Origin: Pseudomonadota bacterium
Lineage (GTDB): Bacteria; Pseudomonadota; Alphaproteobacteria; Caulobacterales; Maricaulaceae
Reading direction: 5' to 3'
DNA length: 64,000 nucleotides
Assembly: GCA_039819095.1 (NCBI GenBank)
Contig: JBCBSP010000003.1
Span: forward strand, 169,835 to 233,834
Part shown: positions 1 to 60,800 of the stretch, piece by piece
How positions within the stretch are numbered: position 1 is the stretch's first letter
Layout: every line of letters begins with the position of its first letter
Notes under the pieces: generated by a model
Seen by the model: the letters and a program-made list of their open reading frames with translations, nothing else
Told to the model about the DNA's origin: nothing
Databases searched by the model: none
Translations under genes and position numbers: made by a program

Positions 1-156
1 AAGGAAGTCGGGCTGCAAGTCCCGCTCGTGGTCCGCCTGGAAGGCACCAATGTCGAGCTCGGCAAAACGATCATTAATGAGAGCGGGCTGAATGTGATTT
101 CCGCCGATGATCTCGATGATGCCGCGAAGAAGATTACGAAGGCGGTTGAGGGGTAG
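1..156 (+). CDS. sucC: succinate--CoA ligase (ADP-forming) beta subunit, C-terminal fragment (5' end outside window)
   Basis: Frame 1 reads [51 protein letters not shown] then TAG at 154-156. This is a recognisable SucC C-terminal tail, and sucD/sucA/sucB follow downstream. Confidence 0.85.
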
Positions 157-237
157 GCAACATCGCCGTAATACACAGATGGTTGCAAGGCACACAATAA
201 GGCGCCAACCTCACATAAAGGATGTACAACTTGATAG

Positions 238-663
238 GTGACGCCAATGGGGCCTCAGATTGTAGCAGCAGTCGTGGGCGCTAGCGCTGCAATTCTTGCT
301 CAAATTGTTACAATAATCGCACAATATATATTAAAAAATAGAGAAATTTCACTAGAAAAATCTAAGATAAAATTGGCTGCATATCAAAATTACGAGACAC
401 GTCGACTTGACGCATTCACTTATGTTTTCGATCAATTGTACTCACTTCTTGATGATGACAAAAGTGCATTAGAAGTGTATAGAGATATTCGTCCGCACTG
501 GATGTTCTTTAGCCCAGATACACAAGACCTAGTACGCAAAGCCATCCGCGAAAAGAACCAGCATGGCGAGGGCGCGAGTGATAAAGTTGGTGAATCCTTC
601 TTAATTGCCTTCTCTGCGCTGAAAAATGAAAATAAGGAGTGTATGAGGTTTTACTATGACTGA
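238..663 (+). CDS. hypothetical membrane-anchored protein, 141 aa, no family recognised
   Basis: Long ORF in visibly AT-rich DNA, where stop codons should be frequent. It has an N-terminal hydrophobic helix (GPQIVAAVVGASAAILAQIVTIIAQYIL) followed by a charged helical region. The track start is GTG 238; ATG 247 preceded by AGGTGA is an alternative. Its stop overlaps the next ORF's start (ATGACTGA). Confidence 0.6.
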   Translation: MTPMGPQIVAAVVGASAAILAQIVTIIAQYILKNREISLEKSKIKLAAYQNYETRRLDAFTYVFDQLYSLLDDDKSALEVYRDIRPHWMFFSPDTQDLVRKAIREKNQHGEGASDKVGESFLIAFSALKNENKECMRFYYD

Positions 664-1513
664 GCTACCACACCACCTTAAACAAGACATAGATGAGGGC
701 ACACTGAGCATTGAGCACTCACCTAGCGCAATTAAGCCTCACTTGGCAACTGTTAGGCTTACTATGGAACCCCGGTCTATTCCTAGTGAAATCATTAAAC
801 ACCTCCCTATTGCTGAGAAGTTATTCGAAAAATTTCGTGTTATGTTTGATACATCGACTATAGCTATGCCACCAGGCACCGAGATGGATGGGCCTGTAGA
901 TAGGTTTATACGGTACAAACTTGACGAAGATCAGCTCGTGACTTTTAAAGGAGGCTATTCTGCATTTGGCGGTGAAGACTTTATTTCCATTGGAATTTTG
1001 GGGTTCGGGCGAGAGAATATCATCGCCATGGTTTACGGAACCACGAGGCAGGCTGAGCATCTTTGCAAACTTTTAGCAGAAGAGTTGTGGCGCATTTGTG
1101 GTACAGAGCGGAAATGGAGTGAGCTTAGTGATTGCGTTCAATTTGCCTCTCACATAACCGAAACAGAGGTCGATTTTGGATTTAGTTTCGACCGGTTTTT
1201 CGCTCCAGGATTTAACTTGTTCTTACGCGAGGATATCGAAGGGCGCGACGGGCTCGGGAGACACATTGGCATTATGGGGCAACGAAATCCTGCTTCACGC
1301 GAAGAACTTATCGTACGTACAGCCTACAAGCATATAGAAATGGATATAGGCCTCTTCGACGGAGTGTCCGGAGATTCGGAACAATCCTTCTTGAGAATAC
1401 GCCCCAGCACCCGAAAAGATATCAATCGGAGCCTAATGTCAGTCTCGAGTGAGTTGCCCTTTGATCAGCACGTTCAGATGGTGGAACGACTAATCTCTAA
1501 ACTTAAGGATTGA
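656..1513 (+). CDS. hypothetical soluble protein, 285 aa, no family or catalytic motif recognised
   Basis: An 858-nt ORF in AT-rich DNA with only one short competing antisense ORF (821-1060). ATG 656 overlaps the upstream stop by 8 nt, suggesting translational coupling. AAGGAG lies at about 634-639. Confidence 0.6.
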   Translation: MTELPHHLKQDIDEGTLSIEHSPSAIKPHLATVRLTMEPRSIPSEIIKHLPIAEKLFEKFRVMFDTSTIAMPPGTEMDGPVDRFIRYKLDEDQLVTFKGGYSAFGGEDFISIGILGFGRENIIAMVYGTTRQAEHLCKLLAEELWRICGTERKWSELSDCVQFASHITETEVDFGFSFDRFFAPGFNLFLREDIEGRDGLGRHIGIMGQRNPASREELIVRTAYKHIEMDIGLFDGVSGDSEQSFLRIRPSTRKDINRSLMSVSSELPFDQHVQMVERLISKLKD

Positions 1514-1553
1514 ATTTGGACACGAGGCTCAGAGAATAAGCGCAGGTTGTGTG

Positions 1554-1572
1554 CTACACATAACTCGTGTAG
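1554..1572 (+). promoter_or_regulatory. perfect 6-bp inverted repeat CTACAC-N7-GTGTAG, 10 nt upstream of the vapB start (possible antitoxin operator or RNA hairpin)
   Basis: Read directly: ctacac(1554-1559) ataactc gtgtag(1567-1572). Function is inferred from position only. Confidence 0.25.
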
Positions 1573-1581
1573 GCTCTGTAC

Positions 1582-1857
1582 ATGGCTAAGAATATCACCC
1601 TCGCGATTGATGAAGACCTGCTGGACAAGGCGCGCGTGCTCGCCGCGATGCACCGCACGACGGTCAACGCCATGGTGCGGGAGTTTCTTGAGCAAAAGGT
1701 CGGTGAAGAATCCAAGGATGGGCTCCGCGCCGACTGGGATGCGCTTTTCGAGAAAGTGGACCGTGAAGCCACGGACCGCCGTAAACTCATGAAAGGCGGC
1801 CTGCCGCCTCGTGAAGCTCTCTATGATGAGATGATGCGTGGCCGCAGCGTTCTTTGA
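1582..1857 (+). CDS. vapB: ribbon-helix-helix type II antitoxin (VapB-like)
   Basis: The N-terminus MAKNITLAIDEDLLDKARVLAAMHRTTVNAMVREFLEQ has the typical RHH/CopG-type antitoxin pattern. It is 91 aa and overlaps the downstream PIN gene by 20 nt. Confidence 0.75.
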   Translation: MAKNITLAIDEDLLDKARVLAAMHRTTVNAMVREFLEQKVGEESKDGLRADWDALFEKVDREATDRRKLMKGGLPPREALYDEMMRGRSVL

Positions 1858-2257
1858 CAGTAATATCGTCGTCTACGCCGTCGACCCGCGCGATGACAGC
1901 GATGGTAAGCGAAGCGTCGCACGAGAGCTGATACGGGAACGCGATTGCGTTCTCTCCACTCAGGTCTTGATGGAAGTCTTCAATGTTCTCGTCCGGTTGG
2001 ACCTGATGGATGCAGCACCCGCCAAGGGCTATGTCCGCCGCCTTTGCATGTTCCCGATCATCACAATTGAGCGTGGAGACGTGCTTGAAGCCCTGGAGCT
2101 TCGAGACCTCTATCAGATCCACCACTATGACGGCCTCATCCTGCGCGCTGCGGCGAAGAGTGGCGTGTCGATGCTATACACCGAAGACCTCAATCACGGC
2201 CAGATGTACGGCCCGGTGCGGGTCTGCAATCCGTTCATCGAAGACTTCCTCGCCTAG
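1838..2257 (+). CDS. vapC: PIN-domain ribonuclease toxin (VapC-like)
   Basis: GTG start. The N-terminus AAAFFDSNIVVYAVD carries the first conserved acidic residue of PIN domains. Size is 139 aa, a later DGLILRAA...TEDLNHG segment is present, and the gene pairs with an upstream RHH antitoxin. Confidence 0.8.
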   Translation: MAAAFFDSNIVVYAVDPRDDSDGKRSVARELIRERDCVLSTQVLMEVFNVLVRLDLMDAAPAKGYVRRLCMFPIITIERGDVLEALELRDLYQIHHYDGLILRAAAKSGVSMLYTEDLNHGQMYGPVRVCNPFIEDFLA

Positions 2258-2275: not shown

Positions 2276-3184
2276 ATGTCCGTACTCGTCAACAAAGACA
2301 CCAAAGTCATCGTCCAGGGTCTGACCGGCAAGACCGGCACCTTCCACACCGAACAGGCGCTGGCCTATTACGGCACCAAAATGGTCGCCGGGGTTCACCC
2401 GAAAAAGGGCGGGGAGAGCTGGACCAGCGGCATGGACGGCGCGGCTTCTCTGCCGATCTACGCCAGTGTCGCCGAAGCCAAGGACGCGACCGGGGCAAGC
2501 GCTTCGGTGGTCTATGTGCCGCCGGCCGGCGCGGGCGCAGCCATCATCGAAGCGATCGATGCGGAGATGGACCTGATCGTGTGCATCACCGAAGGCATTC
2601 CGGTGCTCGACATGGTCAAGGTCAAGGCGCGCCTGGACCGATCCAGCTCCCGCCTGCTCGGACCGAACTGCCCCGGCGTGCTGACCCCGGAAGAGTGCAA
2701 GATCGGCATCATGCCCGGCTCGATCTTCCAGAAGGGTTCGGTCGGCGTGGTCTCGCGCTCCGGCACGCTGACCTATGAGGCGGTGTTCCAGACCAGCCAG
2801 GAGGGCCTCGGCCAGACCACGGCGGTCGGAATTGGCGGCGACCCGGTCAAGGGCACCGAGTTCATCGACGTGCTGGAGATGTTCCTCGCCGACGAGGAGA
2901 CGAAATCGATCATCATGATCGGCGAAATCGGCGGCTCGGCCGAGGAAGAAGCCGCACAATTCCTCAAGGATGAAGCCGCCAGGGGTCGCAAGAAGCCCAC
3001 GGTCGGCTTCATCGCCGGGCGCACGGCGCCTCCGGGCCGCACCATGGGCCATGCCGGCGCGATCGTATCCGGCGGCAAGGGCGGCGCGGATGACAAGATC
3101 GAGGCCATGAAATCGGCCGGCATCACGGTGTCCGACAGCCCGGCCCGGCTCGGCGTGACGCTGAGCGAGGTGCTGAAGGGTTAA
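2276..3184 (+). CDS. sucD: succinate--CoA ligase alpha subunit
   Basis: [46 protein letters not shown]..., SRSGTLTYE and GHAGAI motifs are typical SucD. Confidence 0.97.
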
Positions 3185-3212
3185 CCCTTCAGCCGTCGCG
3201 AAACCTGACACA

Positions 3213-3241
3213 GACCCCGCCTCACCGGCGGGGTCTTCTGC
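3213..3241 (+). terminator. stem-loop downstream of sucD (possible attenuator or weak intrinsic terminator)
   Basis: GACCCCGCC(3213-3221) tcacc GGCGGGGTC(3227-3235) forms a perfect 9-bp stem followed by TTCTGCTATT. The T-tract is weak. Confidence 0.45.
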
Positions 3242-3329
3242 TATTGAGCCGCCGCCAGCTGCGACCTTGGTCGAAGCGCGGCGCGAAAACCCACACGATA
3301 CTCTTCTCATTTACCCTTAACGGGCATAA

Positions 3330-6300
3330 ATGTCCGTGTATCACATGCGCGCGCCGTCGCGCGTCGATCCCAAGCGCCCGCTTCGGGCGGAACTGGCTGA
3401 AATGGCTGAAGAACGCTCCTCCTCGAACCAGACCTTTCTGGAAACCTCGTTTCTGTATGGCGGCAACGCCGTCTATCTCGAAGACATGGCCGCGCGCTAC
3501 GCGCAGGATCCCGGCTCTGTTCCGGACTCCTGGCGCGCCTTCTTCGAAACCATGGGCGATGCCGGCGCCGACGCCGTGCGGGCCGCAGAGGGGCCGGGCT
3601 GGAGGCGTGATGACTGGCCGCGCCGCGCCAATGGCGACATGGTCGCCGCGCTTGGCGATATCGGCCCGGAGCTTGCCGGCGTCCCGGACGCGGTGGCCGA
3701 GAAAATGCCGGCCGGCGCCAGCCAGGATGAAGTCCAGCGCGCTGTGCGCGATTCGATCGCGGCGATCATGCTCATCCGCGCCTATCGCATGCGCGGACAT
3801 CTGGCGGCCGATCTCGACCCGCTCGGCCTGACCGATTTCGGCGAGCAGCGCGAGCTGCAGCCGTCACGCTTCGGCTTTGAGGAGGCCGATCTCGACCGGC
3901 AGATCTTCATCAACGGCTATCTCGGGATGGAAAGCGCCACAGTGCGCGAAATCCTGGAGATCCTGAAGCGCACCTATTGCTCCACTTTCGCGGTGGAGTT
4001 CATGCATATCTCCAATCCGGAGGAGAAATCCTGGCTGCAGGAACGCATTGAGGGTCCGGACAAGGAGATCGCCTTCTCAAAAGAAGGCAAGCGCGCCATT
4101 CTGAAGAAGCTGGTCGAGGCGGAAAGCTTCGAGAACTTCCTGCATAAGCGCTATCCCGGCACCAAGCGCTTCGGCATTGACGGCGGCGAGGCCATGGTCC
4201 CGGCGCTGGAGCAGATCATCAAGCGCGGCGGAGCGCTGGGCGTCACCGATATCGTGCTCGGCATGCCGCACCGCGGTCGGCTTAACGTGCTCGCGGCAGT
4301 GATGGGCAAGCCCTATCATGTCATCTTCCACGAGTTTCAGGGCGGCAGCTCGATCGGCGATGACGAGTACGCATCCGGCGATGTGAAATACCATCTCGGC
4401 TCATCGTCCGACCGCGCCTTTGACGGCAATAACGTGCATCTGTCGCTGACCGCGAACCCGTCCCACCTGGAAGCGGTCAATCCGGTCGTCCTGGGCAAGG
4501 CGCGCGCGAAGCAGACCAAGCTGCGCCGCGATCTCGGTCCGGAGGAAAACACCGGCGCCATGGTGCTGCCTCTGCTGCTGCATGGTGATGCGGCTTTCGC
4601 CGGTCAGGGCGTGGTCGCCGAGTGTCTCGGGCTTTCCGGCCTGAAGGGTCACCGCACAGGCGGGGCGATCCACTTCATCGTCAACAATCAGATCGGCTTC
4701 ACGACCAATCCGAAGGATTCCCGTTCCTCGCCCTATCCCAGCGATGTCGCCCTGATGGTTCAGGCGCCGATCTTCCATGTGAACGGCGATGACCCTGAAG
4801 CGGTGGTGTTTGCCGCCAAGGTCGCTACGGAATACCGCCAGAAGTTCGGCAAGGACGTCGTCATCGACATGTTCTGCTATCGCCGCTTCGGCCACAATGA
4901 GGGCGACGACCCGTCCTTCACCCAGCCCATCATGTACAAGGCGATCGCCGGGCGCGACACGACGCTGACGCTTTACGCGGGCCGGCTCCTGTCCGAAGGC
5001 GTGGTGGAAGAGAGCGAGCTGGATGGCTGGCGCTCGGAGTTTGACGACTTCCTCGACGCCGAGTTCGAAGCCGGCAAGGCGTATAAGGCCAACACGGTGG
5101 ACTGGCTGGACGGTGTCTGGTCAGGGCTCGGCCTGCCGGAGGAAGACAAGCTGCGCGGCCAGACCGGCGTGCCGGAAGACCGGCTGAAAGAGATCGGCAT
5201 GGCGATGACCGAGATTCCCGAGGGGATTGCGGTCCACAAGACGCTGAAGCGGGTTCTGGGCAATCGTCGCAAGATGATCGAGACGGGCGAGAATCTCGAC
5301 TGGTCGACCGCCGAGCATCTGGCGTTCGGCACCCTGCTGCGCGAGGGATTCCCGGTGCGCCTATCCGGTCAGGATTCCGGGCGCGGCACCTTCTCCCAGC
5401 GCCATTCGCACATCATTGATCAGGAAACCGAGGAGCGTCATACCCCGCTCAATCATCTCAGCGAGGATCAGGCCCGCTATGAGGTGATCGATTCCATGCT
5501 GTCGGAAGAAGCCGTGCTCGGCTTTGAGCATGGCTACTCGCTGTCGGCGCCGAACACGCTGGTGATGTGGGAAGCCCAGTTCGGCGACTTTGTGAACGGC
5601 GCCCAGATCATCATCGACCAGTTCATCTCCTCATCCGAGCGCAAATGGCTGCGCATGTCCGGCCTGGTCATGCTCCTGCCGCATGGCTTTGAAGGTCAGG
5701 GTCCGGAGCACTCCTCAGCACGGCTTGAGCGCTTCCTGCAGCAATGCGCCGAAGACAATATGCAGGTGGCCAACTGCTCAACCCCGGCGAACTACTACCA
5801 TATTCTTCGCCGCCAGATTCACCGGCCTTTCCGCAAACCGCTTATCCTGATGACGCCCAAAAGCCTTTTACGTCACAAGCGCTGCGTCTCGCCGCTGTTT
5901 GAGTTCGCCGAAGGCAGCACCTTCCACCGCGTGCTGTGGGATGATGCCGACATGAAGGCCCGCGGCGACCGTGACGATGTGGCCGCCGGGCGCACCACGA
6001 CCCGGCTCGTTGAAGACGAGAAGATCCGCCGTGTCGTGATGTGTTCCGGCAAGGTGTATTACGACCTGCTTGAAGCGCGCGAGGAACGCGGCGTTGATGA
6101 CGTTTATCTTCTGCGCGTGGAACAGTACTATCCCTTCCCGGCGCTCTCCCTGATCCATGAGCTTCAGCGCTTCAAATCCGCCGACATGGTCTGGTGTCAG
6201 GAGGAGCCGAAGAATATGGGCCCGTGGAGCTTCGTCGAGCCTTATATCGAGTTTTGCCTGGACAAGGCGGAGACCGACAAAGACCGTCCGCGCTATGTCG

Positions 6301-8078: not shown

Positions 8079-10853
8079 TCAGTGCGCCTGCCCCCACGTT
8101 TCGGCGGCTTTGGCGTCCACGACCAGCGGCACGGTGAGGCTCACGGCAGGAAGATGCGCTTCGCTCATCACCTCGCGAACGATTTCGATCAGGCGTACAG
8201 CCTCGTCTTCAGGCGCCTCGAAGACCAGCTCGTCATGGACCTGAAGCAGCATGCGTGACTTCAGCCCCGCCTTGGCGAGCGCGTCTTCCATGCGCAGCAT
8301 GGCGCGGCGAATGATGTCGGCGGCCGCCCCCTGGATCGGCGCGTTGATCGCCTGGCGTTCCGCGAACTGGCGCACGGAGGGGTTCTTGTCCTTGATGCCG
8401 GGCAGATGGATGCGCCGACCGAACAGGGTGGAGACCGCGCCGCGTTCTTTGGCTTCGGCCTTCATCGCGTCCATATAATCGGCGATGCCCGGGAATTTCT
8501 TGAAATAGCTTTCGATATACGCCTTCGCCTCATCGCGTCCGATGCCGAGATTATTGGCCAGGCCGAAGGCGGAAATGCCATAAATAATGCCAAAATTGAT
8601 CGCCTTGGCGTTCCGCCGCGTCGCCGGGTCCATTTCATCAAGCGGCACCCCGAACATTTCCGACGCCGTCATGGCGTGAATATCCTGACCCTGGCGGAAG
8701 GCCTCTTTCAGCGCTTCCACATCGGCGATATGGGCGAGAAGCCGCAACTCGATCTGGGAATAATCCGCCGCGACGACGCGATGGCCGGGTTCGGCGGTGA
8801 AGGCCTCGCGGATCTTGCGGCCCTCTTCAGTGCGGATCGGAATGTTCTGCAGGTTCGGTTCAGAGCTGGACAGCCGACCGGTTGAGGTCGCAGCCAGAGA
8901 GAAGCTGGTATGAACCCGGCCGGTATTCGGGTTGATCGCCTCTTTCAGCGCATCCGAATAGGTCGATTTCAGCTTTGAGAATTGCCGCCAGGTCAAAAGC
9001 GCCTGCGGCAGCTCATGGCCCTGGGCGGCGAGCTCTTCGAGCACCGCCGCATCGGTCGACCAGGCGCCGGACTTTGTCTTCTTGCCGCCCGGCAGACCCA
9101 TCTCGCCGAACAGGATTTCGCCGATCTGTTTGGGACTTCCAAGATTGAAGGGGTGGCCAGCGGTCCTGTGCGCGATCTCTTCGGATTCGGCCATTTTCTG
9201 CGCGAAGTGTGAGGACAGGCGCGAAAGCTGGGCCACATCGACCTTGACGCCAGCCAGCTCCATGCGCGCCAGCGCGCCCGCCATGCCGCGTTCCAGCGTC
9301 TCATAGACGGTGAGAAGTCCCTTCTTCGCCAGGCCCGGCTTCAACAGCTCCCAGAGACGCAGCGTGATATCGGCGTCTTCCGCAGCGTAGGCGGTGGCGG
9401 TCGCCAGATCGATCTCGCTGAAGCGTTTCTGTTTCTTGCCGGTTCCGCACACCTCCTTGAACGGGATGCAGCGATGACCGAGATGCCTTTCGGCCAGCTC
9501 ATCCATGCCGTGCCCGTGCAGCCCCGCCTCCTGCACATAGGAGATGAGCATGGTGTCGTCGTACGGAGTCGCCTCAATGCCATAGCGGGCCAGCACCGCC
9601 AGATCATATTTGAAATTCTGGCCGACTTTCAGAACAGCTGGATCCTCAAGCAGACGCTTCAAGGCGCCGAGCGCGGCGGCTTCTTCAATCTGCTCAGGAC
9701 GCCCGCCGCCATCGGCGAGATCGCCGCCCTCATGGCCGAGGGGGATATAGCAGGCCTCGCCCGGCGCGACGGCGAGCGATACGCCGACGAGCCGCGAGGC
9801 GGTGGCGGACAGCGCATCGGTTTCGGTATCGACTGCAACGACGCGCATCGTCCTGGCCCGGTCCATCCAGCGCTGAAGCGCATCCATCGTCTGGACCGTC
9901 TCGTATTTCGACCGGTCGATCGGCGCAGTGGCGTCGCCTGTGGCGTCCGCCGGCCCGGCGCCGAGACCTTCTTCCACGCGGCGGGTGAGCGTGCGGAACT
10001 CCATCGATTTTAAAAAGCTCAGCAGCGTGTCCGCATCGGGTTCATCCGTCCCGAACGCATCGAGCTCCGCGTCAACCGCGACATCCGTCTTCAGCGTGAC
10101 CAACTCACGTGACAGCCGCGCGTCATCGGCGTGCTCGGTGAGTTTTTCGCGGCGCTTGGGCTGCTTGATCTCGCCGGCGCGCTCCAAGAGCGCGTCCAGA
10201 TCGCCATACTCGGTGATCAGCTGAGCCGCCGTTTTCACCCCGATGCCCGGCACGCCCGGGACATTATCGACCGAGTCTCCGGCGAGCGCCTGAACGTCGA
10301 TGACCCGATCCGGGCCCACGCCAAACTTTTCGATCACCTCATCATGGCTGATGCGTTTGGCCTTCATCGGGTCGAGCATTGTGACCTGATCGGACACAAG
10401 CTGCATCAGATCCTTGTCCGAAGACGCCACGGTCACCCGCGCACCGGCTTCTGCGGCCTGCCGGGCATAGGTCGCAATCAGATCATCGGCCTCATAACCC
10501 TCCATCTCGATACAGGGCAGCTGAAACGCGTTGGTGGCGTCGCGAATGAGCGGAAATTGCGGAACGAGATCTTCCGGCGCGGGCGGGCGATTGGCCTTGT
10601 ACTGATCATAGATCGCGTTGCGGAAACTCTCGCCGGAATAGTCGAAAATCACCGCCAGATGCGTCGGTTGATCCTCGCCCTTCAGGTCCTCCAGAAGCTT
10701 CCACAGCATGTTGCAGAAGCCCTGCACCGCTCCGACCGGCGTGCCGTCCGAACGGGTGAGCGGCGGCAGGGCGTGATAGGCGCGGAAGATATAACCCGAC
10801 CCGTCCACCAGATAGACGTGGCTGGAAGCGTCGACGGGACGGGAAACGGCCAT
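8079..10853 (-). CDS. polA: DNA polymerase I
   Basis: 924 aa. It has a 5'-3' exonuclease N-terminus (YLVDGSGYIFRAYHA), a 3'-5' exonuclease region and polymerase motifs (DYSQIELR, QVHDELVFE). Confidence 0.97.
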   Translation of the reverse strand: MAVSRPVDASSHVYLVDGSGYIFRAYHALPPLTRSDGTPVGAVQGFCNMLWKLLEDLKGEDQPTHLAVIFDYSGESFRNAIYDQYKANRPPAPEDLVPQFPLIRDATNAFQLPCIEMEGYEADDLIATYARQAAEAGARVTVASSDKDLMQLVSDQVTMLDPMKAKRISHDEVIEKFGVGPDRVIDVQALAGDSVDNVPGVPGIGVKTAAQLITEYGDLDALLERAGEIKQPKRREKLTEHADDARLSRELVTLKTDVAVDAELDAFGTDEPDADTLLSFLKSMEFRTLTRRVEEGLGAGPADATGDATAPIDRSKYETVQTMDALQRWMDRARTMRVVAVDTETDALSATASRLVGVSLAVAPGEACYIPLGHEGGDLADGGGRPEQIEEAAALGALKRLLEDPAVLKVGQNFKYDLAVLARYGIEATPYDDTMLISYVQEAGLHGHGMDELAERHLGHRCIPFKEVCGTGKKQKRFSEIDLATATAYAAEDADITLRLWELLKPGLAKKGLLTVYETLERGMAGALARMELAGVKVDVAQLSRLSSHFAQKMAESEEIAHRTAGHPFNLGSPKQIGEILFGEMGLPGGKKTKSGAWSTDAAVLEELAAQGHELPQALLTWRQFSKLKSTYSDALKEAINPNTGRVHTSFSLAATSTGRLSSSEPNLQNIPIRTEEGRKIREAFTAEPGHRVVAADYSQIELRLLAHIADVEALKEAFRQGQDIHAMTASEMFGVPLDEMDPATRRNAKAINFGIIYGISAFGLANNLGIGRDEAKAYIESYFKKFPGIADYMDAMKAEAKERGAVSTLFGRRIHLPGIKDKNPSVRQFAERQAINAPIQGAAADIIRRAMLRMEDALAKAGLKSRMLLQVHDELVFEAPEDEAVRLIEIVREVMSEAHLPAVSLTVPLVVDAKAAETWGQAH

Positions 10854-10962
10854 GGGAATGCTCTTCAGATCGGCTGAGTAACGAGGGGTGCGAACCTAGA
10901 ACCTTTTCAGCGGAACAGGGAACCGGTTCTGCGGCTTGGGTCTTTGATAACGGGTTTAACGC

Positions 10963-19261: not shown

Positions 19262-21208
19262 ATGAGCAACTCAGATCAGCGTCAACCTGCGAACGGTCCA
19301 GCCGATTCACGCAGCCCGCTGCAGCGCTACGCCACACTGCTCGGCGTCAGCGCATGGGATGCGCTGGCTGGCGCAGCCGCCATGTATGGCGCGATCGTGG
19401 TGCGCTATCTGTTCGAGCCTTCCGGTCATCCGCCCGGAGGGGTGGAATGGGTCGCTTCAGGCCTTTTTGCGATCGCCTGCCTTCTGGTTCTGCCGCTTAT
19501 GGGGCTGCATCGCGGGTTGTGGCGCCACACGACGCTGGCGGACGCTGGGCGGCTCTTTCAGGGTATCGTTCTGGCGCACCTGGTGTTTTTGCCAGCGCTC
19601 TTTCTTTTCACCCGCCTGCAGGATTTCCCACGCTCCGCGCTGCTTATGTCCACCCTGGCCATGGTGGTGGCCACGCTGGGCCCGCGCCTGGCGGCGACGG
19701 CCTGGCGATCGGGTGATCTGCGCGCCCTGTTCCGCATTGAAGACCGCAAGACGCCAGCCGCGGTACTGGTCGGCGGCGCAGAACGGATGGCCGAAGTCCT
19801 TCGACGCGAGATGCGCCGCTCCGGCGGGCCGTCCTTCCGCTTTCGGGCCCTGATCGAGCCCGGCGGCGCCTATCGCGGTCGCGCCCTGCTCGGCGTTCCC
19901 GTCCTTGGTGGGATGGAAGCGCTTGAGGACGCGGCGCGGCGCGTTGCTCGGGACGGTGAGACAGTGCGCATCGTGCTGGCCGAAGCCGACCCGCCGTCGG
20001 AACTGATCGCCGAATGCGCGCGCGTTGCGGGCCGTGTCGGAGCAACTCTCTCACGCAGCCGGGCCCGCGAGGGCGGCGCCCCCTTCACCGCGGTGGAAGC
20101 GGCGGACCTCCTGTCACGCACCCCGCGCCATCTTTCGCGAGCCGGCGCGCGCAAGCTGATCGCCGGCAAGCGGGTTCTGGTCACCGGAGCCGGCGGCGCG
20201 ATCGGTTCTGAACTGACTCGCCAGGCGGCGCAGCTTGATCCTGAGCGCCTCATCCTTCTGGATTCAGCGGAGAGCCATCTCTATGAGATCGATATGGCGC
20301 TAAAGGCCACCCCGGATGCGCCGGACTGGCGCGCCGTGCTTGGCGATGTGCGCGATGTTGAACGGCTGAAGGCGGTGTTCGCGCAAGAACGCCCGGAAGT
20401 GATCCTGCACGCGGCGGCGCTGAAGCATGTGCCTCTGATGGAGGTGAATGGCGCTGAAGCGGTGCTGACCAATGTGTTCGGCACGCAGAATGTCGTCGAT
20501 GCGGCGGCCCTGAGCGGCTGTGAGGTCGTGGTTCTGATTTCCACAGACAAGGCGGTCGATCCGGTCAGCATCATGGGGGCGACCAAGCGTGCTGCGGAAC
20601 TCTATCTGGCCGCCGCCGCCCAGGATCTGCCGGCGCCGCGCCTGTGCGCGGTCCGCTTCGGCAATGTGCTCGCCTCCACCGGTTCTGTCGTGCCGCTGTT
20701 TGAGCGCCAGATTTCCGAGGGCGGCCCGGTGACTGTGACTGACCCGGACACGACGCGTTACTTCATGACGCTGGAGGAGGCCGCCAGCCTGGTTCTGGAA
20801 GCCGGCGCCCAGACCGCCGAAGACGCGCGCGAGGATGGCCGGCTGTTCCTGCTGGACATGGGTCAGCCCGTGCCCATCGCCAGACTGGCCCGCCAGCTGA
20901 TCCGGCTGCGCGGCATGGAGCCTGGCCGGGATATTGGCGTCGAATACATGGGGCTGCGCCCAGGTGAGAAGCTTCACGAGGCGCTCACACACGCATTTGA
21001 AGACACCCGGCCCAGCGCCACAGACGGCGTGCTGCGCGTGTCCGGGCCTCGACCGCAAATGGAAGCGTTGCGCCCCGCGCTTGAACGACTGAAAACGGCT
21101 GCGCTGGCGCGTGATGAGGCCGGTGTTCGCTCTGGTCTGGACGAGATCCTGGCGCTGGGCTGGCCGGCCGGCGTGCAATCCATGGCAGAGCGGCTTTCAG
21201 CCGGCTGA
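19262..21208 (+). CDS. membrane-bound polysaccharide biosynthesis protein, CapD/WbpM/PglF-type NDP-sugar 4,6-dehydratase
   Basis: N-terminal TM helices, then a Rossmann motif VLVTGAGGAIGSEL and STDKAVDPVSIMGATKR, typical of the CapD-like family. Confidence 0.8.
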   Translation: MSNSDQRQPANGPADSRSPLQRYATLLGVSAWDALAGAAAMYGAIVVRYLFEPSGHPPGGVEWVASGLFAIACLLVLPLMGLHRGLWRHTTLADAGRLFQGIVLAHLVFLPALFLFTRLQDFPRSALLMSTLAMVVATLGPRLAATAWRSGDLRALFRIEDRKTPAAVLVGGAERMAEVLRREMRRSGGPSFRFRALIEPGGAYRGRALLGVPVLGGMEALEDAARRVARDGETVRIVLAEADPPSELIAECARVAGRVGATLSRSRAREGGAPFTAVEAADLLSRTPRHLSRAGARKLIAGKRVLVTGAGGAIGSELTRQAAQLDPERLILLDSAESHLYEIDMALKATPDAPDWRAVLGDVRDVERLKAVFAQERPEVILHAAALKHVPLMEVNGAEAVLTNVFGTQNVVDAAALSGCEVVVLISTDKAVDPVSIMGATKRAAELYLAAAAQDLPAPRLCAVRFGNVLASTGSVVPLFERQISEGGPVTVTDPDTTRYFMTLEEAASLVLEAGAQTAEDAREDGRLFLLDMGQPVPIARLARQLIRLRGMEPGRDIGVEYMGLRPGEKLHEALTHAFEDTRPSATDGVLRVSGPRPQMEALRPALERLKTAALARDEAGVRSGLDEILALGWPAGVQSMAERLSAG

Positions 21209-55084: not shown

Positions 55085-57772
55085 ATGACGAGCGCCGCCC
55101 CCCTCGACGCCATGCTGGACCGCGCCTTCCCGACAGCGGAAGGCGGCACGCCGATGATGGTGCAGTTTCTCCAATTGCGCGCCGAGGCGCCTTTGGACGC
55201 CCTGCTCTTCTATCGCATGGGCGATTTTTACGAGCTGTTCTTCGATGACGCAGTGCGCGCCTCAGCGGCGCTCGACATTGCGTTGACCAAGCGCGGAGAG
55301 CATCAGGGCGAGCCGGTCGCAATGTGCGGCGTGCCGGTTCACAATGCGCAGATCTATCTGTCCCGCCTGATCAAGGCCGGCTTCAAGGTTGCGGTCGGCG
55401 AACAGATGGAGGATCCCAGCGAGGCTAAGAAGCGCGGCTCCAAGTCCGTGGTCCGGCGCGCAATCACCCGCATCGTCACGCCCGGTACGCTTACCGAGGA
55501 TGATCTTCTGGACGCGAGAAGCGCCAACCGGATCGCCGCGCTGGCGCGCACCGCGTCCGGCGAGCTGGCTCTGGCGGTCGCGGAAGTGTCCGAGGGCGCC
55601 TTCCGCGCCAGCCCCGTTGGCGAGGAGGCGGTTGATGCCGAGCTCGCCGCACTCAATCCAGCCGAGCTTCTCGTCAGCGAGGACGATGCGCGCATCGCCG
55701 AAGCCGCCTGTCCGTCCGCAGCGATCACCACACGGGCGCGCGCCAAGTTTGACGCCGGCGCGGGCGAGCGGCGCCTGAAGGAGCGATTCGCGGTCGCCTC
55801 CCTCGACGCGTTTGGCGATTTCAGCCGGGCGGAGCTATCCGCGCTAGGCTGCCTTCTGGATTATCTGGAGCTGACCCAGGCTGGCGCTCCGGCCAAGCTC
55901 GCCCCTCCGGTCAGCCAGCCTGCCGGTTCGGCGATGGCGATTGATCCGGCCGCGCGCGCCAGCCTTGAGATCGAGCGCACCCTGTCCGGCGCGCGCAAGG
56001 GCTCGCTGCTGGATGCGATCGACCGCACCGTCACAGCGCCGGGCGCGCGCCTTTTGGCGGAGCGACTGGCGAGGCCATCCATGGATCTGGATGCGATATC
56101 GGCGCGCCAGGACGCGGCCGGCTTCTTTGTCGAAACCACCGAGCTGCGCGACGGCGCGCGCGAGCGGCTGAAGCGGGCCGGCGACCCAGTACGCGCGCTC
56201 TCAAGGCTGGCGCTGGGTCGCGGGGGGCCGCGCGACCTGCTGCAGCTGGCGCGCGCGCTGAAAGAGGGAGAGGGCTTGAATGCCGATTTCGCCCGCCACC
56301 CGCTCGCCCGGCCCCCTGCAGCCATTGAAGCGGCCCTGCAGTCGGTGTCGCTTGCCGGCCACGCCGAGCTCGCCGCCTTCGTTCAGGAGGTTGAGCGCGC
56401 CCTGGTCGATGAGCCGCCGCTTCTGGCGCGTGAAGGAGGCTTTGTAGCGGCGGGCTGGTCTCCGGGGCTCGATGAGGCCCGCAAACTGCGCGACGACTCC
56501 CGGCGCATTGTGGCCGGCCTGCAGAAGACCTATGCCGATCAGAGCAGTGTCGCGAATCTGAAGGTTAAGCACAACAACGTGCTTGGCTATTTCATCGAAG
56601 TGTCCGCGAAAAACGCCGACGCGCTGATGGGTGCTGAACCCTTCATCCACCGCCAGACCATGGCCAATGCGGTGCGTTTCTCCACCCCGGAGCTGGGCGA
56701 GCTGGAAGCGAAAATCGCCCAGGCCGGTGAACGCGCCATCGCTATGGAGCTGGAGATTTTCGAAGCGCTCCGCATTCGCGCCGAAAGCCTCAGCCCCGCC
56801 ATCCGCGCCGCCGCCGAGGCGCTCGCCGCGCTTGATGTGGCCTGCGCGGACGCGGTGTGGGCGCAGGACTGCGGCGCGAGCCGGCCCGTCGTCGATTCAA
56901 GTGGCGCGTTCGAGATTATCGGCGGGCGCCACCCGGTCGTTGAACAGGCGCTGGAGCGCACCGGCGAGGGCCGTTTCACGCCCAATGACTGCCGGCTCGA
57001 CGCTGAAGGCGGGGCGGGTCCGCGGCTGACATTGGTGACCGGTCCAAACATGGCCGGCAAATCCACCTATCTCAGACAGAACGCGCTCATCGCCATTCTG
57101 GCGCAGGCCGGTCTCCACGTTCCCGCACGTTCGGCAAGAATCGGCCTCGTCGACCGGCTCTTCTCGCGCGTCGGGGCGGCCGATGATCTGGCGCGGGGGC
57201 GCTCCACCTTCATGGCGGAGATGATCGAGACCGCCGCCATTCTCAATCAGGCCGACCCGCGTGCCCTGGTCATCCTGGACGAAATCGGGCGCGGCACGGC
57301 GACGTTTGACGGGCTTTCCATCGCCTGGGCCGCTGTGGAGCATCTGCACGGCGTGAATGGATGCCGCGCCCTGTTCGCCACCCATTATCACGAGCTGACA
57401 AGACTGGTGGATGAGCTTGAGAGCGCAGCCAACGCCTCCCTGAAAGCCAGGGAATGGAAGGGTGAGCTCGTCTTCCTGCACGAGGTCGGAGCCGGGCCAG
57501 CCGACCGTTCGTACGGGGTTGAAGTGGCCAAGCGCGCCGGACTTCCCCCCGCTGCGGTGGCTCGCGCAAAGCACATCCTCGACCGGCTTGAAGCCGAAGG
57601 CCAGCCCGCCGCAGCGCTCGCTGACCTCCCCCTGTTCAGCGCCGCTATCCCTGAACCGGCCGTCAAACCAAGCGCGGTGGAAGAGCGGCTGAAAACCGTC
57701 GACGCCGACGGCCTGTCGCCCCGCGAAGCACTGGAGCTGGTCTATGCGCTGAAGGGGTTGGCGGAGAAGTAG
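55085..57772 (+). CDS. mutS: DNA mismatch repair protein MutS
   Basis: TPMMVQFLQLRAEAP..LLFYRMGDFYELFFDDA, Walker A TGPNMAGKST, and DEIGRGTATFDGLSIAWA. Confidence 0.97.
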   Translation: MTSAAPLDAMLDRAFPTAEGGTPMMVQFLQLRAEAPLDALLFYRMGDFYELFFDDAVRASAALDIALTKRGEHQGEPVAMCGVPVHNAQIYLSRLIKAGFKVAVGEQMEDPSEAKKRGSKSVVRRAITRIVTPGTLTEDDLLDARSANRIAALARTASGELALAVAEVSEGAFRASPVGEEAVDAELAALNPAELLVSEDDARIAEAACPSAAITTRARAKFDAGAGERRLKERFAVASLDAFGDFSRAELSALGCLLDYLELTQAGAPAKLAPPVSQPAGSAMAIDPAARASLEIERTLSGARKGSLLDAIDRTVTAPGARLLAERLARPSMDLDAISARQDAAGFFVETTELRDGARERLKRAGDPVRALSRLALGRGGPRDLLQLARALKEGEGLNADFARHPLARPPAAIEAALQSVSLAGHAELAAFVQEVERALVDEPPLLAREGGFVAAGWSPGLDEARKLRDDSRRIVAGLQKTYADQSSVANLKVKHNNVLGYFIEVSAKNADALMGAEPFIHRQTMANAVRFSTPELGELEAKIAQAGERAIAMELEIFEALRIRAESLSPAIRAAAEALAALDVACADAVWAQDCGASRPVVDSSGAFEIIGGRHPVVEQALERTGEGRFTPNDCRLDAEGGAGPRLTLVTGPNMAGKSTYLRQNALIAILAQAGLHVPARSARIGLVDRLFSRVGAADDLARGRSTFMAEMIETAAILNQADPRALVILDEIGRGTATFDGLSIAWAAVEHLHGVNGCRALFATHYHELTRLVDELESAANASLKAREWKGELVFLHEVGAGPADRSYGVEVAKRAGLPPAAVARAKHILDRLEAEGQPAAALADLPLFSAAIPEPAVKPSAVEERLKTVDADGLSPREALELVYALKGLAEK

Positions 57773-57899: not shown

Positions 57900-60800
57900 T
57901 CACCATCCCATCCGCACACCTGCGCGGGCGCCGACCTTGCCGGTCTGATCGGCCCAGCCCACGGCAAGATTGGCTGACAAGCGATTGCTGACGCGGCGTG
58001 CGGCTGAAAGCGCGAGGGCGTTTGATCCATCGTAATGGCCCCAGTTAGCGCTGAAGGCCACCGTTTCATTCTGCTGCAACCAAGTCGAACCCGACAGCGC
58101 ATTGGCGATGGCGATGCCGTCCATGTTTTGCGCGATCTGGTTGGCGTTGCGGGTCGACAGCACGCTGAGCTGCTCCACGCTCACCTGCATCGCTGCAAAG
58201 TCGTTCTCCAACGTTTCAATCCGACCGGTGTTGGACGCGATGGCCACTTCGTTGGTTCTGATGCGCGTGTCGAAGCCCATAATCGCCGCGGTGTTGGACG
58301 CGATATTGTCGGTATTCGTCGCGATATTCACCGTATTACGATCAATGTCAGTCCGGTTGGTCGCAATCGCAGCGGTGTTGTTGTCGATATCAGCGCGGTT
58401 GGCGTCGATATCAGACCGGTTGTCGGCGATATCAGACTCGTTCTGAGTGATCCGGTCTTCGTGATCATCGACTTGGGTCTCAAGATCGATAAGGCGTTGA
58501 CCGTTACCCGCGACACCGGCCTGCAGCAGGGCGATATCGGCAGCATTCACCGCCACCCCATTCGCGATGGTCGAGATGCCTGCGGTGTTGTTTGCGATAT
58601 TGACCGTGTTCGTCGCGATGCTCGTCGAGTTGTTCGCAATGTTGGTCGTATTGGTCGCGATCGTCGTGGTGTTGTTGGCGATGTTGGTTGTGTTGGTCGC
58701 GACGCCGGCGGTGTTGTTCGCGATGTTCGTGGTGTTCGTCGCGATATTGCCGGTGTTGGTTGCAATGTTGGTTGTGTTGGTCGCGATATTTGTCGTGTTC
58801 GTCGCGATGTTCGTGGTGTTTACCCCAATCGCCGCCGTGTTCGACGCGATATCAGCCAGCGCCGCTCCGCCGTCTGACGCGATATTGCCGTCCGCATCCA
58901 CCGTCACGAACCCGTCCACGGCGCCTTGAGCCGCAGTTGAGGCCGCTGAGGTCAAGCCTGGAAGGGTGTAGGTGTTCGAGCTCGTTCCGATCACGATCTG
59001 ATCGGCGCGCGACGCGACCGCCCCGACACCGATCGCCATGGAATTGTCGAAGGCCGCGCTCGCACCCTGGCCGAAGGCCGAAGCCCCCGCACCGCGGGCG
59101 ACCGCGCCTTGACCGATGGCGGTGGAAGCTTCACCGGAGGCTTCCGCATCCTCACCAACCGCCGTGGTGTCATCCTCGGTGGCTTCGGCGTTTTCACCCA
59201 GCGCCGTTGACGACGCGCCTGTCGCCATCGTGTTGGCGCCGAAGGCCGCTGAATCCGCGCCCGTGGCCATGGCCAGAAGGCCGACCGCCGTGGAGCCGGA
59301 GGCCACCGCGCCATCACCGATTGCAACCGCACCGGTATTTGTGGCGGACGCATTGCGCCCGATGGCCACCGCGCCTTCCTCGGTCGCCGAGGCCGCTTCA
59401 CCAATGGCGACGGCGTCATCACCCGTGGCCGAGGCCACAGCCCCCGTGGAGTTCACGTCGAGATAGACGGACCCTGGGGTGACTGAGCCGAGCGCTGCGA
59501 TGTCAGCGGTGTTCTGGGTCACCTGGGTCTGCAGCGCCCCGCCGTCAGAGGCGAGATTGCCGTCCGCGTCGGTGGTGACCAGACCCGTGACCGCGCCTTG
59601 CGCCGCCGTAGACGCGGCGGAGGTGATGCCAGCGATGGTGACGGCCTCAGTAACTGTTCCCAGAACGATCTGGTTGGCGCGGGTGGTGGACGCGTTCGCG
59701 CCCAGCGCGATTGAGTTGTCAAACGCGGTGCTCGCGTCATCCCCGATGGCGATGGAATTCGTTCCGTTCGCCGTGGCGCCGGTTCCAACCGCAAGCGCGC
59801 CGACCGATTCAGCCCGTGATCCGTCACCCAGCGCCATCGAGCTGGCCGCGACTGCGGCCGCATTCTGACCCAGGGCCGTAGCGGCTACAGCTGTTGCGCT
59901 TGCGCCCTGACCGATCGCCGTGGCGTCATTACCGCTCGCGGTGGCGCCCTGGCCGACGGCGGTTGCTTGGGTGTTGGACGCTGTCGCGCCTTCACCAACC
60001 GCCGTCGACTCGTCAGAGTCTGCGGTGGCGTTCTCACCCAACGCGCTTGATTGCGCGCCTGTCGCCATCGTGTTGGCGCCGAAGGCCGCTGAATCCGCGC
60101 CTGTGGCCATGGCGAGCAGGCCGACCGCGGTGGATCCGGACGCTACTGCGCCGTCACCGATCGCAACCGCGCCCGCATTGGTGGCGGACGCGTTACGCCC
60201 GATTGCGACCGCGCCTTCCTCTGTGGCCGAAGCTGCTTCGCCGATGGCGATCGCGTCATCGCCCGTAGCGCTTGCCGCCGCACCGGTGGAGTTCACATCG
60301 AGATAGATGGAGCCGCCGCCGCCCGCGCCAAGCGCGGCGATATCAGCGGTGTTCTGGTTCACCTGCGTCTGCAGCGCCCCGCCGTCAGAGGCGAGATTGC
60401 CGTCCGCGTCGGTGGTGACCAGGCCCGTGACTGCACCCTGCGCCGCCGTAGAGGCTGCGGAGGTGATGCCCGCGATAGTGACGGTCTCGCTCGCCGTGCC
60501 CAGAACGATCTGGTTGGCGCGGGTGGTCGCAGCACCGGTACCCAGAGCGATGGAGTTTTCAAATCCGGCATTGGACGATTCACCGATGGCGATGGCCCGC
60601 TGAGCGCTGGCTGTGCTGTCATCGCCCATCGCGATGGCGTCATCCGCCGTTGCTCGCGCGCCGTCGCCATCAATGTCCGGATCACCGCCGATGGCGATGG
60701 CGGAGATTCCCGAAGCGACCGCGCCGTCTCCGACGGCGAAGCTGTCCGCGCCGGATGCAATGGCCCCGAAGCCATTTCCATCCGAATCCCCGCCGAGCGC

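Follow-up and report, generated by a model that had tools for sequence, protein, structure and literature searches.

Two described systems, RexAB and Kiwa, offer the closest parallels to the gene pair that is the subject of this report. RexA and RexB of bacteriophage lambda are, respectively, a cytoplasmic, sensor-type protein of ~280 amino acids (aa) and a membrane protein of ~140 aa; the system is borne on a mobile element and has been proposed to end in loss of the membrane potential. Kiwa is a two-gene defence system in which the gene for a membrane protein, KwaA, comes first, and that for KwaB, a soluble DUF4868 protein of ~300 aa, comes second. The pair we describe lies at the left-hand end of a 64,000-nucleotide (nt) stretch of DNA, referred to throughout as ‘the window’, from an alphaproteobacterium of the family Maricaulaceae. 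Its first gene, ORF1 (ORF, open reading frame; window positions 247..663, + strand), encodes a predicted membrane protein of 138 aa, and its second, ORF2 (656..1513, + strand), an acidic, predicted soluble protein of 285 aa. Together they occupy the junction between sucC and sucD, the genes for the beta and alpha subunits of succinyl-CoA synthetase. Our favoured, though tentative, interpretation is that the pair is a conflict module, one that moves horizontally and whose two genes are always kept together, with a role in defence, abortive infection or exclusion.

Like RexAB, the module comprises two genes, for a soluble and a membrane protein of similar sizes, on mobile DNA. RexB, however, is polytopic, with four transmembrane (TM) helices, whereas ORF1 has one; the gene order is reversed; and ORF2 finds no sequence or fold match in the Protein Data Bank (PDB), where RexA should be included. 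Like Kiwa, the module places the membrane protein first and a soluble partner of ~300 aa second, but there is no match to the KwaA or KwaB models of the PADLOC database, no structural match in the PDB, and ORF1 is single-pass. What these systems have in common, one membrane and one soluble product encoded together on mobile or foreign DNA, is found here; a polytopic channel component, or homology to RexB or KwaA, is not, ORF1 having a single hydrophobic segment and no PADLOC match. The resemblance to RexAB and Kiwa is one of general layout only.

The pairing of the two genes is obligate and conserved. At all 12 loci with enough sequence upstream of an ORF2 homologue, an ORF1-type gene lies directly upstream (hidden Markov model (HMM) E-values of 1e-17 to 1e-60), at a spacing of -26 to +25 nt. 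The partner is kept even where ORF2 identity has fallen to 20%, and even where gene callers overlooked it. At the locus with the closest relative of ORF2 (contig L001), the partner is 33% identical to ORF1 of the window (E = 1e-23). One further locus with a partner, the thirteenth, on a forest-soil metagenome contig (L101, 4144-4755), is frameshifted, its TM segment and helical domain being in different frames; this could be an assembly error or, equally, a decaying copy.

ORF1 and its partners share an architecture as well as a position. The mean Kyte–Doolittle hydrophobicity over 19 residues is 2.32 in ORF1 of the window, and 1.6-2.45 in 11 of 11 partners. An AlphaFold2 (AF2) model built from the single sequence has a predicted local distance difference test score (pLDDT) of 78.5, with helices at residues 3-68, 74-87, 90-106 and 112-137, and a cytoplasmic part modelled at pLDDT 87-95. 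The N-terminal TM helix of the partners is rich in glycine and alanine, shows a small-xxx-small pattern, and carries a glutamine or histidine at mid-membrane. It is followed by a basic juxtamembrane stalk (net charge +1 to +5) and a cytoplasmic helical bundle, in which the helix ‘RRLxA(F/L)E’ is conserved across ORF1-type partners. Fold searches with the model return only generic four-helix bundles, and the ORF1-family profile has no match in the PDB. An earlier reading of the window from its letters alone, which we call the first-pass annotation, had given the first product a single N-terminal TM helix with a helical cytoplasmic part, and had treated the two genes as a functional pair; both proposals are borne out.

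The two reading frames overlap by 8 nt (656..663, + strand; ATGACTGA), as first noted, in a stretch that contains the start codon of ORF2 and the stop codon of ORF1, and the overlap probably indicates translational coupling. ORF1 can start at either of two codons, GTG 238 (141 aa) or ATG 247 (138 aa). The second is the likelier, because a Shine–Dalgarno sequence, AGGTGA (235-240), lies 6 nt upstream of it, the protein deposited at NCBI has 138 aa, and so does the L001 homologue; the ORF of 141 codons first annotated therefore stands as an ORF, with its start moved. Nor are these frames accidents of AT-rich DNA, as had been argued from their length: at the composition of the cassette, a run of 285 codons free of stops has an analytic probability of 2.9e-8, and in 2000 shuffles of the cassette the longest open frame was of 216 codons, with none reaching 285. 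In the surroundings of the cassette within the window, no promoter-like or terminator-like site was found above the chance rate.

Adjacent, co-oriented, overlapping genes whose coupling is conserved at 12 loci are also the layout of toxin–antitoxin (TA) systems of type II. The pair might, by this token, be a selfish, TA-like addiction module in which ORF1 is a membrane-damaging toxin, ORF2 is an antitoxin that sequesters it, and post-segregational killing stabilises the carrier DNA, with no anti-phage role. The small size and tight coupling of the overlapping pair would suit such a module, as would its occurrence as lone insertions among housekeeping genes, in the manner of chromosomal TA loci and at a site also used by vapBC, and its carriage as cargo of integrative elements, with a sporadic, foreign and rare distribution. 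Neither protein, though, contains a DNA-binding antitoxin domain (ribbon-helix-helix (RHH), helix-turn-helix, AbrB and Phd were considered) or a recognised toxin fold, and ORF2, the larger, well-folded and highly conserved member, would make an unusual labile antitoxin. Membrane toxins of TA types I and V are classically much smaller than 138 aa, and ORF1, with its conserved cytoplasmic bundle, is far larger than these classical small toxins. We regard this explanation as unlikely.

By every sequence comparison made, both protein families are previously undescribed. Neither product belongs to a known family or displays a known catalytic motif, as the first-pass annotation had also concluded; the profile-HMM comparison it proposed gave no family above cut-off for either protein, in Pfam or PADLOC, and NCBIfam, PHROGs and the PDB were no more informative. 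A likeness of ORF1 to HisK-N (PF20302) was rejected: it scores 21.7 bits against a cut-off of 27.8, and was seen in one of six partners. The further description of the cassette as an orphan was misleading. Word-indexed searches do return just two relatives of ORF2 and none of ORF1, but an exhaustive profile-HMM search of 1.84 billion representatives returns 191 ORF2-family clusters (defined at 50% identity), 161 of them at E <= 1e-10. Most are singletons and nearly all are 280-320 aa long; this is a genuine family, though an uncommon and varied one. Of the 111 members aligned, not one matches Pfam at E <= 0.001; weaker matches, three in number and each from a single member, are to unrelated families (E 0.007-0.01). 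Searched against PDB sequences, the family profile gives nothing significant and no TATA-box-binding protein (TBP), the best hit (E = 0.059) being to an unrelated protein. Pattern-based scans of genome and metagenome contigs for such loci found no match. Members with a named source belong to Streptomyces longwoodensis, Terrabacter, Jiella, Stappia and a metagenome-assembled genome (MAG) of the Paracoccaceae; every one carries the annotation ‘hypothetical protein’.

The module is foreign in every host examined. In the window, ORF1 has a G+C content of 0.40 and a G+C content at third codon positions (GC3) of 0.35, and ORF2 has values of 0.46 and 0.455; those of the host genes sucD (0.65 and 0.855) and sucA (0.62 and 0.79) are far higher, and the window as a whole stands at 0.648. 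Strongly low-G+C DNA occurs within the 64 kb in the first 2 kb only. Recounting the five 60-nt lines that had been counted by hand gave identical values (0.20, 0.483, 0.40, 0.567 and 0.80). In nine other hosts, among them Alphaproteobacteria and Actinobacteria, the GC3 of the module lies 20-45 points under that of the neighbouring genes (e.g. 0.47 versus 0.86-0.96 in L020, and 0.73-0.74 versus 0.94-0.99 in L016). The earlier view of the cassette as compositionally foreign and horizontally acquired is thus upheld at synonymous sites, here and in those nine hosts, and horizontal mobility of the module can be taken as established.

What carries the module is seen most clearly in Streptomyces longwoodensis (L013), where it occupies positions 9316-10921 between 69-nt direct repeats (2641-2709 and 20110-20178), the second of which overlaps a tRNA-Pro gene (20136-20210) next to an integrase gene. 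The bracketed region contains genes for Xis, RepSA, SpdB, FtsK/SpoIIIE, GntR and NUDIX proteins, a set typical of an actinomycete integrative conjugative element (ICE), here of the pSAM2 type. The attachment (att) core is present there in three copies, of 69, 21 and 69 nt, the 21-nt copy being at 5445-5465, and these may record tandem integrations, or remnants of them, at tRNA-Pro. Adjoining the module in the same element is the gene for an 881-aa Hypoth_Ymh protein, which has a low GC3 (0.65). At a second actinobacterial locus (L014), the module lies beside similar element genes. Its flanking genes in Terrabacter, both of low GC3, are an mREase_II-like gene and an NsnA/PD-T4-2_A-like DUF262 gene (3.7e-58), and on the forest-soil contig L101 its neighbours are MqsA-like, HEPN_Swt1/PDC-M34B and mad3/mad8-like genes. 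Conflict genes or genes of mobile genetic elements (MGEs) stand beside the module at ~5-6 of 13 distinct loci in all (the window, with vapBC; L013, L014, L018, L101; and possibly L019, with an RHS gene), a small sample with no background control. At the other loci the neighbours are metabolic, and the defence-island association for which homologues were to be surveyed is no more than possible.

Alternatively, the module might primarily benefit ICEs, by entry or surface exclusion or by interference with incoming conjugative or phage DNA, and have become stranded only secondarily on chromosomes. Its place inside the att-bounded Streptomyces element and beside the genes of a second element in L014 is compatible with this, and so is the predicted membrane localisation of ORF1. 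Most loci, on the other hand, have no element genes nearby (the window, L001, L007, L016, L017 and L020), and no integrase, relaxase or att repeats flank the cassette in the window. A function of this sort is, in our judgement, very unlikely.

In the window, the insertion site is bounded on the left by the 3' end of sucC (1..156, + strand), which in translation shows 78% identity, judged by eye, with the C-terminus of sucC in L001 and L058. A spacer (157..246, + strand) follows, which holds the ORF1 Shine–Dalgarno sequence and a motif, CACATAAAGGATGTA (210-224). To the right of ORF2 lies the native upstream region of a vapB gene (1514..1581, + strand), with an operator/promoter palindrome, TTGTGTGCTACACATAACTCGTGTA, at ~1540-1570; this region can be aligned to its counterparts upstream of vapB in L021, L058 and L096, all of which are free of the module, and marks the right-hand insertion boundary. 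Outside the module come vapB itself (1582..1857, + strand), which encodes an RHH antitoxin matching Pfam DUF6364 at its cut-off (FitA-like RHH, VapB and RHH_1 fall below theirs), and vapC (1838..2257, + strand), for a PIN-domain toxin (PIN E = 6.4e-11). The two overlap by 20 nt, and vapC stops 18 nt before sucD (2276..3184, + strand), the right flank of the site, with sucA next.

The closest relative of ORF2, at 47% identity, occupies the same junction, in the order sucC-ORF1'-ORF2'-sucD on L001, where the pair is likewise AT-rich and has the same 8-nt overlap, and where vapBC is absent. The two hosts are distant, being 60% identical across the N-terminus of SucD. SucD of the window is 88-91% identical to that of Alkalicaulis, Oceanicaulis and the MAG RI_41, and by SucD, at 85-91% identity, the window host falls together with Alkalicaulis, Oceanicaulis and Woodsholea, in which the sucC–sucD junction is essentially empty. 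Neither ORF1 nor ORF2 was found at the sucCD loci of 80 alphaproteobacterial species. Vertical inheritance of the position was considered and dismissed, the hosts being distant and 80 of 80 related species lacking the module.

Two copies at one junction might instead mean that succinyl-CoA synthetase, or the tricarboxylic acid cycle operon, has the pair as an accessory factor. Its recurrence there in such distantly related hosts, co-oriented with the operon and with no predicted terminator, is what this idea would lead one to expect. The ORF2 family, however, occurs in at least 11 unrelated contexts, which contradicts a functional link to the enzyme; the module is compositionally foreign; none of 80 related sucCD loci has it; and in 29 of 79 species the site holds cargo unrelated to it. 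We consider this idea so improbable as to deserve almost no weight.

That last count comes from a survey of 79 alphaproteobacterial species genomes (loci L021-L100, most with sucD at 4001), in which the sucC–sucD gap (157-2275 in the window) was measured from sucC ends placed by tblastn. The gap is 59 nt or less in 50 species, and contains 236-2344 nt of inserted DNA in the other 29 (37%). As cargo, these inserts bring genes for cupins, DUF1579 proteins, a sulfotransferase, small membrane or secreted proteins and a TIR protein, as well as vapBC, and it is established that in Alphaproteobacteria this gap is a site where small foreign genes land repeatedly. Eight of 80 species, drawn from several orders, have homologues of the window vapBC (34-52% identical, short fragments aside) directly upstream of sucD: L021 (3303-3987), L058 (3283-3982), L096 (3295-3979), L047 (2661-3333), L046 (3310-3973), L052 (437-1061), L049 and L050. 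For vapB, homologues in this position are 44-56% identical. Two Mesorhizobium copies are degraded, only a C-terminal PIN fragment being left. Among these sucD-adjacent loci the vapB operator, TTGTGTGC-ACACATAAC-CGTGTA, is conserved, and in the window it is intact (~1540-1570). These positional homologues and the intact operator lead us to conclude that vapBC is the older resident, and that the module was inserted later, between the sucC stop codon and the vapB operator.

This history bears on several points in the first-pass annotation. Separate origins for the cassette and vapBC, which it had suggested, are confirmed, since all eight species have vapBC and its operator at sucD and none has the cassette. 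The composition offered in support, with vapBC described as host-like, was only partly right: the GC3 of vapBC, 0.67-0.71, is intermediate and falls short of that of host genes. Its use of the neighbouring vapBC as part of an abortive-infection architecture is discounted, because an element long resident at sucC|sucD is not, by its proximity, evidence of a defence island.

The cargo most relevant to the nature of the module is found in a Hyphomonadaceae MAG (L058), where a gene (2520-3242, + strand) for a 240-aa TIR-domain protein lies between sucC and the vapB operator, the same sub-site that the module occupies in the window. The protein matches TIR_2 (1.3e-23) and ThsB-type PADLOC models and has a Rho_N-like segment, and the G+C content of its gene, at 0.42-0.48, is low against flanks of ~0.6.

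The borders of the window cassette have no target-site duplication, direct or terminal inverted repeats, tRNA gene, integrase or relaxase gene, att repeats or Rfam element. Integron attC-type repeats are absent too, as far as can be said with no dedicated attC model run; the vapB operator, the one palindrome 3' of ORF2, occurs as well where the module is absent. Entry by recombination through the highly conserved sucC and sucD flanks may be inferred. The motif CACATAAAGGATGTA in the sucC–ORF1 spacer resembles the core of the vapB operator, CACATAACTCGTGTA (1553-1567), in a 7-mer and a 4-mer at equal spacing; the likeness may have arisen by partial duplication of the target region or by chance (rough p ~1e-3 to 1e-2). 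Hotspots flanked by core genes are known elsewhere (e.g. the ‘core defence hotspots’ of Pseudomonas, PMC10250203) and, like sucC|sucD, combine a fixed core-gene site with variable foreign cargo that includes TA and TIR genes. The junction described here differs in lying inside an essential operon, in taking up one to three small genes, in having no integrase or repeats, and in the large share of its cargo that is non-defensive. Our literature search found no specific account of a sucC/sucD–vapBC hotspot.

An AF2 model of ORF2 built from a 111-sequence alignment (pLDDT 93.8; predicted TM-score 0.88) has two successive lobes. Lobe 1 comprises a beta strand (26-37), helices, four strands (95-126) and a long helix (130-147), and lobe 2 a beta strand (161-173), helices, three strands (227-265) and a long helix (269-284), so that each has, as assigned by DSSP, a beta-alpha(n)-beta3-4-alpha order. 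When the model was searched with Foldseek against the viral structure database BFVD, the top three matches were giant-virus TBPs (best E 2.6e-5, probability 1.0, query TM-score (TMq) 0.41), and further matches were to TBP-like large subunits of VETF (VETF-L). The TM-scores of all these are only 0.33-0.41. Against the PDB, Foldseek gave no significant match (best E 0.011) and no TBP among the top 50; the weak matches there are to tandem PAS/dCache domains, Bet v1/PYL proteins, YwmB, the phosphoglucomutase (PGM) C-terminal domain, and RNA-triphosphatase tunnels. The AlphaFold and Foldseek analysis suggested at the outset has therefore been made for both proteins, with a TBP-like outcome for ORF2.

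The predicted topology of ORF2 may accordingly be called two-lobed and TBP-like. Archaeal, eukaryotic and giant-virus TBPs likewise have two successive lobes of the beta-alpha-beta4-alpha type in one chain. There is, however, no sequence similarity between the two, and the lobes of ORF2, at ~130 aa with extra helices, are larger than the ~90-aa lobes of TBP. The TBP saddle is basic and binds DNA, whereas the ORF2 family is acidic (median pI 5.3, net charge -9; in the window, pI 5.4 and charge -11). The N- and C-terminal halves of ORF2, compared with hhalign, give a probability of 0.3%, and there is no internal sequence repeat. Given the modest TM-scores, the absence of solved TBPs from the PDB list, the lack of an internal repeat and the acidity of the family, we claim a likeness of fold only, and not homology to TBP.

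TBP-like domains do occur in phage defence. They act as substrate-binding modules in the anti-phage toxin RnlA, which has two in tandem, and are fused, as putative sensors, to prokaryotic Schlafen nucleases (PMC8266594, PMC13056530). In a superfamily survey of 2013, characterised TBP domains other than TBP itself were all single-copy (PMC3597702). ORF2 would share this type of domain with the RnlA/LsoA toxins and the TBP–Schlafen fusions, in which the chain also includes a nuclease effector, HEPN or Schlafen; ORF2 has none. No match between RnlA and ORF2 was found, whether by profile against PDB sequences or by Foldseek against the PDB. A search of the literature for a TBP-like defence sensor of this kind found no specific account.

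Conservation in ORF2 points in another direction as well. Two residues, G100 and H272, are invariant, and the conserved polar residues Y166, T168, T170, D235, S/T238, E242, S/T265 and E266 all lie in lobe 2. ORF1 might on this evidence be simply an anchor for ORF2, with the polar cluster of lobe 2 and H272 binding or modifying a small molecule, a lipid or an envelope precursor, either in a niche accessory function or as a conflict effector. An invariant histidine confined with conserved acidic and hydroxyl residues to one lobe is what an enzyme or ligand binder might show, and the weak fold resemblances to helix-grip binders (Bet v1/PYL, DynU16) and to CYTH/RNA-triphosphatase tunnels agree with it. 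The acidic surface of ORF2 speaks against generic nucleic-acid binding, and small enzymes (cupin, sulfotransferase) are among the other cargo at sucC|sucD. Yet no catalytic motif or family known to us is matched, no partner metabolic genes co-occur, and pervasive foreignness, rarity and carriage on MGEs are atypical of a metabolic accessory function. On balance, we judge a membrane-tethered enzyme or ligand binder to be improbable.

To return to the conflict module that we favour, its circumstantial support comes from the TIR gene at the same sub-site, from its carriage as cargo of an att-bounded element, and from its DUF262, mREase, HEPN and mad-like neighbours elsewhere; the obligate pairing, the rarity and foreign composition of the family, the TM anchor and the TBP-like lobes also count in its favour. 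How it might act can be outlined as follows. The module would have come to rest between sucC and the promoter of the resident vapBC, at a permissive ‘parking’ site, and its two genes would be translated in coupled fashion, probably from transcripts that read through from sucC. ORF1 would be a single-pass protein, anchored at its N-terminus with its C-terminal helical bundle toward the cytoplasm, and the acidic ORF2 may dock, as a sensor or regulator, on its basic juxtamembrane stalk or bundle. On sensing a foreign protein or nucleic-acid cue, ORF2 would release or re-arrange ORF1, whose small-xxx-small TM helix, with its mid-membrane glutamine or histidine, could then oligomerise and compromise the membrane, and so stop the infected cell. 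In its most specific form, this would be a new abortive-infection system against phages or other MGEs, in which a bipartite, TBP-like cytoplasmic sensor is tethered to a single-pass membrane effector, and for which sucC|sucD serves as an integrase-independent immune landing pad. We consider that version possible, but rather doubtful.

Several observations weigh against a role in defence. Among the 5027 models of PADLOC-DB v2.0.0, no family is matched by ORF1 or ORF2 at E <= 1; ORF2 matches nothing in Pfam-A, NCBIfam or PHROGs, and ORF1 nothing above the curated cut-off. No copies of the module were found in phage, plasmid or IMG/VR collections, in tblastn searches of phage and plasmid records with three members or in scans of viral contigs with three members. 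About half of its contexts are ordinary and metabolic: sucC|sucD (twice), after cobS, and near putA, an FAA-hydrolase operon and uvrB. Much of the cargo at sucC|sucD is itself non-defensive, consisting of cupin, DUF1579, sulfotransferase and secreted proteins. Neither protein has a recognisable effector domain, and a single TM helix in that capacity is speculation; H272 and the conserved polar cluster leave room for ORF2 to be an enzyme instead of a sensor. The first-pass proposal of a defence or abortive-infection function has, then, gained the TIR gene, the Streptomyces element and the conflict-type neighbours in its favour, and has these absences and metabolic settings against it. Such a role is plausible as a hypothesis.

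Some further features deserve brief mention. In a Rhodobacteraceae MAG (L007, 8590-10876), the module starts 9 nt past the stop codon of cobS, in the same orientation, and the contig ends 137 nt after ORF2; here too the module immediately follows a conserved gene of housekeeping function. SucD of the window has an 8-residue insertion relative to that of L001, at residues ~45-58 (2400-2460); the related L058 protein has a similar one, and the insertion appears to be a feature of the clade. At the far end of the window, an ORF of at least 2023 aa (57900-63971, - strand), with repeats rich in alanine, threonine, serine and glycine, and others of the NTTNIATN type toward its C-terminus, resembles an adhesin of the trimeric-autotransporter type. 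Its repeats account for a G+C dip and AT skew at 58-59 kb, the sole other mild G+C dip in the window, and mutS (55085-57772) lies just upstream of it.

A small, mobile, two-gene layout of membrane and soluble proteins is already known; what is new here is the two protein families. Whatever its function, the module represents an obligately paired, always-foreign family of ~190 clusters, with a high-confidence structural model. The junction within the essential sucCD operon is, just as independently, a recurrent landing pad in 37% of the species sampled, and is home, across several orders, to a resident lineage of vapBC with a conserved operator. The states in which the junction is found (empty; vapBC; TIR and vapBC; module and vapBC; module alone) form a natural comparison set for the hotspot. 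If the module is a defence or abortive-infection system, it would be a compact one (1.27 kb), of two genes from two families undescribed in the databases, with, in its sensor-like part, a fold familiar mainly from TBP, a transcription factor of eukaryotes and archaea; it would bring a new protein fold family to bacterial immunity, and provide a bacterial example of the two-lobed, TBP-like architecture.

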